This document shows, piece by piece, positions 12,913 to 15,535 of a stretch of DNA of 64,000 nucleotides. The position numbers and the translations under genes were made by a program. The notes under the pieces were generated by a model. The model worked only from the letters and a program-made list of their open reading frames with translations, was not told where the DNA came from and did not search any database. Positions within the stretch are counted from its first letter, which is position 1, and every line of letters starts with the position of its first letter. The DNA comes from Escherichia coli (GTDB lineage: Bacteria > Pseudomonadota > Gammaproteobacteria > Enterobacterales > Enterobacteriaceae): the NCBI RefSeq assembly GCF_003334335.1, contig NZ_QOWQ01000013.1, one strand, 5' to 3'.

Positions 12913-13944
12913 ATGTCTGCATTTACCCCGGCAAGTGAAGTCTTGCTGCGTCACAGTGATGATTTCGAACAAAGCCGTATTCTGTTTGCCGGAGACTTAC
13001 AGGATGACCTGCCCGCGCGTTTAGATACCGCGGCCAGCCGTGCTCATACCCAGCAATTTCACCACTGGCAGGTGTTAAGCCGCCAGATGGGGGATAACGC
13101 CCGTTTTAGTCTGGTCGCCACGGCGGATGACGTCGCAGATTGCGATACGCTGATTTACTACTGGCCGAAGAACAAACCGGAAGCCCAGTTCCAGTTGATG
13201 AATTTACTTTCTCTGCTGCCGGTGGGCACTGATATTTTTGTCGTTGGCGAGAACCGCAGCGGCGTGCGCAGCGCCGAGCAGATGCTGGCTGATTATGCGC
13301 CGTTGAATAAAGTCGACAGCGCCCGTCGCTGTGGCCTCTATTTTGGTCGTCTGGAAAAACAGCCGGTATTTGATGCCGATAAATTCTGGGGCGAATACAG
13401 CGTCGATGGCCTGACGGTCAAAACGCTGCCTGGCGTGTTTAGCCGCGACGGTCTGGATGTCGGTAGCCAGTTGCTACTCTCGACGTTAACCCCGCACACG
13501 AAAGGTAAAGTGCTGGATGTCGGCTGTGGCGCGGGTGTGCTTTCAGTTGCCTTTGCGCGCCATTCACCGAAAATTCGTCTCACCTTGTGCGATGTCTCTG
13601 CCCCGGCGGTAGAAGCCAGCCGTGCGACGCTTGCGGCCAACGGTGTTGAAGGTGAAGTCTTTGCCAGCAACGTCTTTTCCGAGGTGAAAGGTCGTTTTGA
13701 TATGATCATCTCCAACCCGCCGTTCCACGATGGGATGCAAACCAGCCTGGATGCGGCGCAAACGCTGATTCGCGGCGCGGTGCGTCATCTTAATAGCGGC
13801 GGCGAGCTGCGAATTGTAGCGAACGCCTTCCTGCCTTATCCGGACGTGCTGGATGAGACATTTGGCTTCCACGAAGTGATCGCGCAAACAGGGCGCTTCA
13901 AGGTGTATCGCGCCATTATGACCCGCCAGGCGAAGAAAGGTTAA
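12913..13944 (+). CDS. rsmC: 16S rRNA (guanine1207-N2)-methyltransferase
   Basis: 343 aa; SAM-binding [11 protein letters not shown] and NPPFH catalytic motif. Confidence 0.9.
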
Positions 13945-14140
<196 letters not shown>

Positions 14141-14175
14141 TTTCCAGCAATTACACCTCCGGCGATAATTAACTA

Positions 14176-14203
14176 TTGACGAAAAGCTGAAAACCACTAG
14201 AAT
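14176..14203 (+). promoter_or_regulatory. Sigma-70 promoter for tRNA-Leu (TTGACG -35, 16-bp spacer, TAGAAT -10, GC-rich discriminator)
   Basis: ttgacg at 14176-14181 and tagaat at 14198-14203, followed by gcgcctcc discriminator typical of stringently controlled stable-RNA promoters, about 40 bp upstream of the tRNA. Confidence 0.65.
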
Positions 14204-14244
14204 GCGCCTCCGTGGTAGCAATTCTTTTTAAGAATTGATGGTAT

Positions 14245-14331
14245 GCGAAGGTGGCGGAATTGGTAGACGCGCTAGCTTCAGGTGTTAGTGTCCTTACGGA
14301 CGTGGGGGTTCAAGTCCCCCCCCTCGCACCA
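14245..14331 (+). tRNA. leuQ: tRNA-Leu (anticodon CAG)
   Basis: GCGAAGGTGGCGGAATTGGTAGACGCGCTAGCTTCAGGTGTTAGTGTCCTTACGGACGTGGGGGTTCAAGTCCCCCCCCTCGCACCA; type II tRNA with long variable arm, CAG anticodon in CTTCAGGT loop, encoded CCA end. Single copy here; which of leuQ/P/V it corresponds to is not determinable. Confidence 0.9.
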
Positions 14332-14369
14332 ATTATCTTTACTTCCTTTCTTGTTTCTTCCCTGTTTTG

Positions 14370-14606
14370 TCATCCCTGATTCAAATTCATTAGCATCAGC
14401 ATGATGCCAGCACTAAGCGTCAGGCACGATGGTAGCAAAACGTAATGCCGTAACTGTTTGTGATACAGCATCACCGGCGTCAATACTAATCCCATAAGAA
14501 TGACAATCCGCCATTGATCCGGCGATAAATCCGCATACATCAGCCCTGCAATCAGCAATCCTGGCAGCAACACTCCCCAGCCACTGCCCAGCGTACGTTG
14601 CAACAT
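14370..14606 (-). CDS. yjjZ: Small membrane protein YjjZ
   Basis: 78-aa product MLQRTLGSGWGVLLPGLLIAGLMYADL... from the internal Met of track ORF 14370..14717. Confidence 0.7.
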   Translation of the reverse strand: MLQRTLGSGWGVLLPGLLIAGLMYADLSPDQWRIVILMGLVLTPVMLYHKQLRHYVLLPSCLTLSAGIMLMLMNLNQG

Positions 14607-14621
14607 GGTTTCATCTCTTTC

Positions 14622-14665
14622 ATTGATAATGATAACCAATATCATATGATAATTTTTATCATTTG
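14622..14665. promoter_or_regulatory. Fur box region upstream of yjjZ
   Basis: gataatgataaccaatatcatatgataatttttatcatt; overlapping matches to Fur consensus GATAATGATAATCATTATC. Confidence 0.6.
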
Positions 14666-14710
14666 CAAGCCAGAGAAATCCCTTGCTATCGGATAAACCT
14701 ATCGCTAGGA

Positions 14711-14730
14711 TTAGCAATCATTATCATTTA
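14711..14730. promoter_or_regulatory. Fur box immediately upstream of fhuF
   Basis: ttagcaatcattatcattta, 17 bp before the fhuF ATG. Confidence 0.6.
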
Positions 14731-14746
14731 GATTACTATCCCGATT

Positions 14747-15535
14747 ATGGCCTATCGTTCCGCACCGCTCTATGAAGATGTTATCTGGCGAACGCATCTC
14801 CAGCCACAGGATGCTGGGCTTGCACAAGCCGTACGTGCGACGATCGCCAAACATCGTGAACATTTGCTCGAGTTTATCCGCCTGGATGAACCCGCTCCGC
14901 TTAACGCCATGACGCTGGCGCAATGGTCATCACCGAATGCGCTAAGTTCTCTACTCGCGGTCTATTCCGATCATATCTATCGCAACCAACCAACGATGAT
15001 CCGCGAGAACAAACCGCTGATCTCACTATGGGCACAATGGTATATCGGCCTGATGGTGCCACCATTAATGCTGGCGCTACTGACGCAGGAAAAGGCATTA
15101 GATGTGTCGCCGGAACATTTCCACGTTGAGTTTCACGAAACCGGCCGTGCCGCCTGTTTCTGGGTCGATGTGTGTGAAGATAAAAACGCAACACCACATT
15201 CGCCGCAGCAGCGAATGGAAACGTTAATCAGCCAGGCGCTGGTTCCGGTTGTGCAGGCACTAGAAGCGACCGGAGAGATCAACGGCAAACTTATCTGGAG
15301 TAATACCGGTTATTTGATCAACTGGTATCTCACTGAGATGAAGCAACTGCTCGGCGAGGCGACGGTTGAATCGCTGCGCCATGCCCTCTTTTTTGAGAAA
15401 ACGCTCACGAACGGTGAAGATAATCCACTCTGGCGTACCGTGGTACTGCGCGACGGCCTGCTGGTGCGCCGCACTTGCTGCCAGCGTTATCGCTTACCGG
15501 ATGTGCAGCAATGTGGCGATTGTACGCTGAAATGA
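14747..15535 (+). CDS. fhuF: Ferric-siderophore reductase FhuF (C-terminal 2Fe-2S cluster)
   Basis: 262 aa ending CCQRYRLPDVQQCGDCTLK (C-C-x10-C-x2-C). Confidence 0.9.
   Translation: MAYRSAPLYEDVIWRTHLQPQDAGLAQAVRATIAKHREHLLEFIRLDEPAPLNAMTLAQWSSPNALSSLLAVYSDHIYRNQPTMIRENKPLISLWAQWYIGLMVPPLMLALLTQEKALDVSPEHFHVEFHETGRAACFWVDVCEDKNATPHSPQQRMETLISQALVPVVQALEATGEINGKLIWSNTGYLINWYLTEMKQLLGEATVESLRHALFFEKTLTNGEDNPLWRTVVLRDGLLVRRTCCQRYRLPDVQQCGDCTLK

Follow-up and report, generated by a model that had tools for sequence, protein, structure and literature searches.

We describe the 140 bp between the divergent genes yjjZ and fhuF of an Escherichia coli chromosome as, most probably, two promoters that each carry their own Fur cluster as a separable operator. 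Repression of both genes by Fur through this region is close to certain, and cluster 1 likely serves chiefly as the operator of yjjZ and cluster 2 chiefly as that of fhuF. The clusters are the fhuF1 and fhuF2 Fur sites of K-12 together with the yjjZ core-regulon promoter, and are as such already published. The analysis itself showed the sequence matches, the placement with respect to published start sites and the conservation; Fur binding and Fur dependence are taken from published work on K-12, whose DNA is near-identical, and on other strains, and not from the allele analyzed here.

The window (the whole stretch of DNA analyzed, 64,000 nucleotides) is E. coli chromosome; of 5426 complete E. 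coli genomes, 5425 matched its bases 14300-14800, with yjjZ, fhuF and tRNA-Leu as the annotated genes. The gene layout given in the preliminary description, with yjjZ and fhuF divergent around a shared spacer, was borne out by the open reading frames at 14606..14370 (minus strand) and 14747-15535 (plus strand). The local features are as follows.

12913-13944, plus strand, rsmC
14245-14331, plus strand, tRNA-Leu(CAG)
14370..14606, minus strand, yjjZ coding sequence, an open reading frame of 78 aa plus stop, named yjjZ in 5425 E. coli genomes
14607-14746, the yjjZ-fhuF intergenic region, 140 bp between divergent genes
14747-15535, plus strand, fhuF coding sequence, an open reading frame matching NCBIfam NF007932, ferric-siderophore reductase
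bglJ and yjjQ, both on the minus strand, local genes

Relative to K-12 MG1655, the intergenic region has no indels and four substitutions (14608, 14675, 14693 and 14708), and the start codons of yjjZ and fhuF lie 141 bp apart in the window and in K-12 alike; published K-12 coordinates therefore transfer directly to the window. The 140-bp region was found in 5425 of 5426 complete genomes, with at least 99% identity in 2563 and 100% in some. Its GC content is 32%, compared with 51% across the window. The identity of FhuF is supported by profile matches to NF007932 (481 bits against a cut-off of 300) and TIGR03951 (233 bits), and the C-terminal motif CC-x10-C-x2-C is present in a translation that ends in CCQRYRLPDVQQCGDC.

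Several observations concern the surroundings of the intergenic region. Nucleotide identity to K-12 is 94.9% for yjjZ, with 6 of 78 residues differing, 96.5% for fhuF, 98.2% for rsmC and 99.3% for bglJ, and database proteins labelled E. coli range down to approximately 77% identity to the YjjZ of the window, a variability that is unusually high for a core gene. The rsmC-yjjZ interval (13945-14331) holds one tRNA-Leu(CAG), whereas K-12 has three (leuQ, leuP and leuV). Upstream (5') of this tRNA gene, a 61-bp REP-type unit occurs twice in direct orientation (13953-14013 and 14064-14124; 98% identical), and an Rfam naRNA4 match above the gathering score, representing one REP-type copy, was obtained at 14023-14105 on the minus strand (73 bits). 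At a permissive E-value, the Rfam scan returned no match in the intergenic region, the only matches being the tRNA and the REP/naRNA4 units further upstream. The terminator scan returned a single weak match, located inside yjjZ and at the level expected by chance.

Fur sites were sought by scanning for the 19-mer consensus GATAATGATAATCATTATC and the 15-mer 7-1-7 motif TGATAATNATTATCA. The elements of cluster 1 and of the yjjZ promoter are listed below; the mapping of the ChIP-exo peak P137 uses an older K-12 coordinate version that was inferred from its "intergenic" label.

14618..14670, unstranded, Fur cluster 1, the high-affinity operator, equal to the published footprint "fhuF1" (4603763-4603815 in K-12)
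14623..14668, unstranded, imperfect palindrome of 46 bp centered on CATATG, an inverted repeat with 26-nt arms that are 81% complementary
14625..14643, unstranded, best 19-bp Fur box, GATAATGATAACCAATATC, 2 mismatches
14647..14661, unstranded, best 7-1-7 Fur box, TGATAATTTTTATCA, 1 mismatch, center at 14654
14663..14668, minus strand, yjjZ -35 hexamer TTGCAA, from the promoter scan and also named in PMC10301672
14641..14646, minus strand, yjjZ -10 hexamer TATGAT, from the promoter scan and also in PMC10301672
14633, minus strand, yjjZ transcription start site, published as 4,605,777 with the ATG at 4,605,804 (NC_000913.3), 27 nt 5' of the ATG
14639..14654, unstranded, MG1655 Fur ChIP-exo peak P137, assigned to yjjZ (4603779-4603794, iron-replete, intergenic; PMC10164565)

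The 19-mer box at 14625-14643 is the sole site in 64 kb with three or fewer mismatches to the consensus, and shuffles of the whole window gave none. The two best 19-mers of the window (14625 with 2 mismatches and 14648 with 4) and its three best 7-1-7 15-mers (14647 with 1 mismatch, 14624 and 14630 with 2 each) all fall in cluster 1, within the span 14619-14666. Because the 140-bp region is AT-rich, it was also shuffled separately as a composition control: in 5000 local dinucleotide shuffles, none reached two or fewer mismatches, and the observed eight sites with seven or fewer mismatches were equalled or exceeded with P = 0.0008. The 19-mer starts follow a 6-bp phase (14619, 14625 and 14631; 14642 and 14648; and, in cluster 2, 14707 and 14713). 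The cluster placed at 14622-14665 by the preliminary description is thus real and far above chance, and it contains the best Fur-consensus matches of the 64 kb. It is identical base for base to K-12, and the strongest Fur site predicted there (22.3 bits, coordinate 4603779, -93 from the fhuF ATG; Chen 2007, PMC2189734) maps to 14654, the center of the best 15-mer of the window. Cluster 1 covers the -35 hexamer, the -10 hexamer and the published start site of yjjZ. The spacer of this promoter was counted as 16 bp, whereas the ROSE study prints 18 bp (PMC10301672).

Two further observations were made within cluster 1. The palindrome holds a promoter-like TTGATA-16-TATGAT match at 14623-14650 on the plus strand (10/12), directed to fhuF, which mirrors the yjjZ promoter, with overlap of both -10 hexamers at CATATG. 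Among published start sites, none agrees with this mirror match, which may be a mere by-product of the Fur-box sequence. Many database calls of YjjZ are 91, 98 or 133 aa long and begin further upstream than the mapped start at 14633, the 91-aa form starting at an ATG at 14645 within the Fur boxes; these longer calls are probably over-extended, with 78 aa being the supported length.

Cluster 2 lies over the start of fhuF, with the elements given here.

14700..14753, unstranded, Fur cluster 2, the low-affinity operator, equal to the published footprint "fhuF2" (4603680-4603733)
14712..14726, unstranded, core Fur box within cluster 2, TAGCAATCATTATCA, departing from the 7-1-7 consensus at 3 positions
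14683..14688, plus strand, fhuF -35 hexamer TTGCTA, read from the sequence, 17 bp 5' of the -10
14706..14711, plus strand, fhuF -10 hexamer TAGGAT (K-12 TATGAT), 5-6 nt 5' of the published start sites
14716..14717, plus strand, fhuF transcription start sites (4603717/4603716; Chen 2007, PMC2189734, Fig. 5 legend)

Cluster 2 extends over the -10 hexamer and start sites of fhuF as well as its 30-nt leader and ATG. By consensus, cluster 2 is not clearly above chance. Its two 19-mers, at 14707 and 14713, have seven mismatches each, and at least one such site (seven or fewer mismatches) occurred in 24% of local shuffles and at least two in 5.8%; its 15-mer at 14712 is among six in the window that share fourth rank with three mismatches. 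The reality of cluster 2 rests on its conservation across genera and on the published low-affinity footprint. The second cluster of the preliminary description (14711-14730) is accordingly present, conserved and footprinted, although it is weak and does not clearly exceed chance by consensus alone. In seven aligned loci, the core AATCATTATCATTTAGATT is nearly invariant and the CTTGC of the -35 is invariant, and TAGGAT serves as the fhuF -10 in six of the seven, the window included. Of the four substitutions relative to K-12, only that at 14708 touches a functional element, namely the fhuF -10 inside the fhuF2 footprint. At this position K-12 has T, whereas G is found in the window, in E. marmotae and in four of five other aligned loci, the exception being L007 with TAATAT. 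The K-12 base, which is nearer to the -10 consensus, looks derived.

Published functional data bear directly on both clusters. In DNase I footprints, 50 nM Fur protected fhuF1, and protection of fhuF2 was weak; a gel shift was also reported for Fur on the K-12 region, and secondary footprints were extended at higher Fur concentration, with Fur extending along the DNA (Chen 2007, PMC2189734). ChIP-exo of Fur has been published for nine E. coli strains, and in the table of their core Fur regulon of 36 genes yjjZ is the first entry and fhuF is also included (Gao 2023, PMC10164565). Across these nine strains, deletion of fur changed expression by log2 5.5-11.3 for yjjZ and 2.0-8.5 for fhuF (PMC10164565). 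The yjjZ start site was silent in the wild type and seen in vivo only in the fur deletion strain, although it was strong in vitro with sigma-70 holoenzyme alone (ROSE, PMC10301672). These deletion and start-site data contradict a lack of Fur-dependent regulation of yjjZ. In the uropathogenic strain CFT073, yjjZ belongs to the direct Fur regulon. In Salmonella, a yjjZ-lacZ fusion is Fur-repressed, and the iron-poor host cytosol induces PyjjZ-gfp 23-fold; adding iron represses this reporter. MG1655 peak P135, which is labelled fhuF (4593337; PMC10164565), was set aside, being approximately 10 kb off and apparently mislabelled. The fhuF-lacZ fusion is the classical Fur titration reporter, and its exceptional sensitivity has been ascribed to weak binding of Fur-Fe2+ by the fhuF promoter. 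Thus, fhuF behaves like a gene with a weak proximal site, despite the 22-bit site approximately 60 bp upstream.

The comparison set consisted of 12 loci with YjjZ homologues (L002-L013) from at least eight genera, making 13 other loci with K-12 included. Four layouts were distinguished.

Compact divergent fhuF and yjjZ: E. marmotae (140 bp), Shimwellia (169 bp), Pantoea (175 bp) and L011 (154 bp)
GGDEF gene between fhuF and a divergent yjjZ: C. koseri, Enterobacter sp., Franconibacter pulveris, L005 and L007
GGDEF gene divergent from yjjZ, with fhuF not nearby: Yersinia mollaretii and L010
Neither fhuF nor the GGDEF gene beside yjjZ: Symbiopectobacterium

In the five loci of the second layout, a GGDEF gene of approximately 0.9-1.1 kb, with its flanks, separates fhuF from yjjZ, and either cluster remains beside its own gene. 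The homologue of cluster 1 (…TGACAAATGAGAAA…TATCATATGATATTGGTTATCATTATC…) lies directly 5' of yjjZ, while that of cluster 2, CTTGC…17 bp…TAGGATTrGCAATCATTATCATTTAGATT, lies directly 5' of fhuF with the -35 and -10 retained. A Fur box was found 5' of yjjZ in 12 of the 13 other loci, K-12 included, with only a weak match in Symbiopectobacterium, and the conservation of this box spans Escherichia, Citrobacter, Enterobacter, Franconibacter, Shimwellia, Pantoea and Yersinia. Copies of yjjZ without an adjacent fhuF keep the box as well, L010 having a perfect TGATAATCATTATCA and Yersinia mollaretii a box with a 2-mismatch 15-mer (3-mismatch 19-mer). In most loci, nearly all 15-mers with three or fewer mismatches sit at the yjjZ and fhuF promoters. 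Counting the window and K-12, fhuF and yjjZ are linked in 11 of 14 loci.

The GGDEF gene, of the diguanylate cyclase type, is divergent from yjjZ in Citrobacter, Enterobacter, Franconibacter, Yersinia and three further loci (L002, 1681-2748; L003, 1717-2781; L005, 1686-2612; L006, 1726-2790; L007, 1673-2743; L010, 1692-2711; L012, 1619-2719) and is absent at the Escherichia, Shimwellia and Pantoea loci. It might itself be iron-regulated, judging from the position of the strong Fur cluster in the GGDEF-yjjZ divergent region. Loss of this gene in Escherichia was considered as a firm direction of change and dropped, given the compact layouts of Pantoea and Shimwellia and the Yersinia arrangement of GGDEF gene and yjjZ without fhuF.

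We hypothesize that the 140 bp comprise two back-to-back sigma-70 promoters, each of which would be occluded by its own overlapping Fur-box cluster. Under iron sufficiency, Fur dimers would fill the palindromic cluster 1 and exclude RNA polymerase, leaving yjjZ almost silent, and the weaker cluster 2 would hold fhuF under looser repression; both promoters would be released when iron is low or Fur is lost. The clusters would be separable modules that lie close together in Escherichia by happenstance. Promoter occlusion is the mechanism suggested by the overlap of boxes and promoter elements. The assignment of each cluster mainly to its own promoter follows from the natural separation of the two by the GGDEF gene, the strong and weak footprints, the weak affinity inferred from fhuF-lacZ, and the unequal de-repression in MG1655, in which the log2 changes upon fur deletion of 7.9 for yjjZ and 2.0 for fhuF (PMC10164565) match a strong and a weak operator. 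Since the change for fhuF varies so widely between strains, operator strength is not the sole variable. In Escherichia, crosstalk is possible: Fur might spread, an upstream promoter element might be interfered with, or the mirror promoter-like match might be involved.

The preliminary description had proposed that both genes are iron-repressed from one compact region. Repression of both genes is upheld by the published footprints and fur-deletion data, whereas its implication that both depend on cluster 1 as a single shared operator is less favored than two separable ones. Under such sharing, cluster 1 would nucleate Fur, which would then spread or loop to cluster 2 or block a second fhuF promoter. 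The geometry lends itself to this, as the clusters are approximately 30 bp apart, the cluster 1 footprint stops 13 bp short of the fhuF -35, and one arm of cluster 1 forms an inverted repeat with cluster 2 at 82% complementarity. The extended secondary footprints at higher Fur concentration (PMC2189734) also speak for sharing, as do the single ChIP-exo peak assigned to yjjZ and fhuF together in W3110 (PMC10164565) and the recurrence of the compact two-cluster layout in Pantoea, Shimwellia and L011. The plus-strand 10/12 match in the palindrome points the same way, in that a second, Fur-controlled fhuF promoter could be hidden in cluster 1. However, in the five GGDEF-split loci fhuF keeps just its proximal box and promoter, the only mapped fhuF start sites are those at 14716/17 (PMC2189734), and fhuF is a weak-affinity Fur target that is much less de-repressed than yjjZ in MG1655. 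We therefore consider a single shared operator unlikely and retain two operators, each at its own promoter, as the preferred explanation.

Cluster 2 could also be read as mainly an OxyR operator, or as plain AT-rich promoter DNA, with Fur control of fhuF exerted from cluster 1 only. Repression of fhuF by oxidized OxyR has been reported, and the best local match to the OxyR consensus ATAGnTnnnAnCTAT-n7-ATAGnTnnnAnCTAT (13/20, at 14688-14724) overlaps the fhuF -35, -10 and start site; this match fits the reported repression, yet it is within background level, as 15 sites in the window score at least 13. Such a reading also draws on the lack of significance of cluster 2 by Fur consensus alone. 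It is very improbable all the same, as Fur does protect cluster 2 in vitro, if weakly (PMC2189734), the box AATCATTATCATT is nearly invariant across genera, and roles for OxyR and Fur are not mutually exclusive. That AT-rich divergent promoters simply mimic Fur boxes by chance, with no Fur function, has some appeal in a region of such low GC content where Fur hexamers resemble -10 and -35 elements, but it can be dismissed almost outright, as none of the 5000 composition-matched shuffles reached the observed match and published footprints, ChIP-exo and fur-deletion data contradict it (PMC2189734, PMC10301672, PMC10164565).

YjjZ is a DUF1435 protein (Pfam PF07256; E=1.5e-35, residues 1-75 of the 75-position model), and no NCBIfam model matches it. 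Hydropathy peaks define three hydrophobic segments at approximately residues 9-25, 32-48 and 55-75, and the Salmonella orthologue has been described as "3TM". The family is small, as a set of 1.84 billion proteins contains 52 representatives of it at 50% identity, and its named members are confined to the Enterobacterales. Residues M46, L47, H49 and P59 are invariant and L52, R53, L57 and L58 nearly so; these conserved positions are concentrated in the loop joining segments 2 and 3 and in the first part of segment 3, giving the motif M-L-x-H ... L-L-P. The function of YjjZ is stated as unknown in the literature (e.g. Gao 2023, PMC10164565), and the earlier remark that it has no established function holds across the literature searched. 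In Salmonella, a yjjZ deletion was among 29 single and multiple deletion mutants tested, and it did not belong to those in which cytosolic colonization was reduced. Co-regulation and synteny suggest that YjjZ may be involved in iron homeostasis. Since FhuF is reported to be loosely membrane-associated, and yjjZ is both co-regulated with fhuF and linked to it in most loci, one speculative idea, which we rate as a long shot, is that YjjZ is a membrane partner of FhuF that tethers this [2Fe-2S] reductase to the inner membrane or links it to an electron source or a hydroxamate-siderophore importer.

Among known systems, the closest is K-12 itself, where fhuF1/fhuF2 (PMC2189734) and the yjjZ core-regulon promoter (PMC10164565) represent the same locus, and footprints, promoters and start sites map directly onto the window. 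The two differ in the fhuF -10, which is TATGAT in K-12 and TAGGAT in the window (14708), and in naming, as the publications name both sites after fhuF, whereas the strong site is here assigned to yjjZ. The enterobactin regions fepA-fes, fepB-entC and fepD-entS are divergent pairs that are likewise compact and bidirectional, with Fur boxes over promoter elements and both genes iron-responsive. In the usual description of these regions, the Fur sites overlap the two promoters simultaneously. The yjjZ-fhuF region differs from them in having two clusters of very different strength that are separated by approximately 30 bp and, in other genera, by a gene. Enterobactin-cluster regions are listed among the footprinted Fur sites (Chen 2007, PMC2189734). 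The product of Salmonella yjjZ (SL1344_4483 / STM14_5469) is an ortholog that belongs to DUF1435, is 78 aa long and has three transmembrane segments; the gene resembles E. coli yjjZ in its repression by iron and Fur, and is induced in the host cytosol. Salmonella presumably has the GGDEF gene STM4551 between fhuF and yjjZ, as in Citrobacter and Enterobacter.

The discovery value of these results is small, as the Fur titration assay has relied for decades on Fur control of fhuF as its read-out, and membership of yjjZ in the core regulon is documented. What the analysis contributes is the placement of the stronger site, one of two that bear the name of fhuF, as the probable operator of yjjZ, and the proposal that the two operators are evolutionarily separable modules. 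YjjZ is the product of one of the most strongly Fur-repressed genes of E. coli, has no known function and stays linked to fhuF, making it a reasonable target for work on the release of iron from siderophores.
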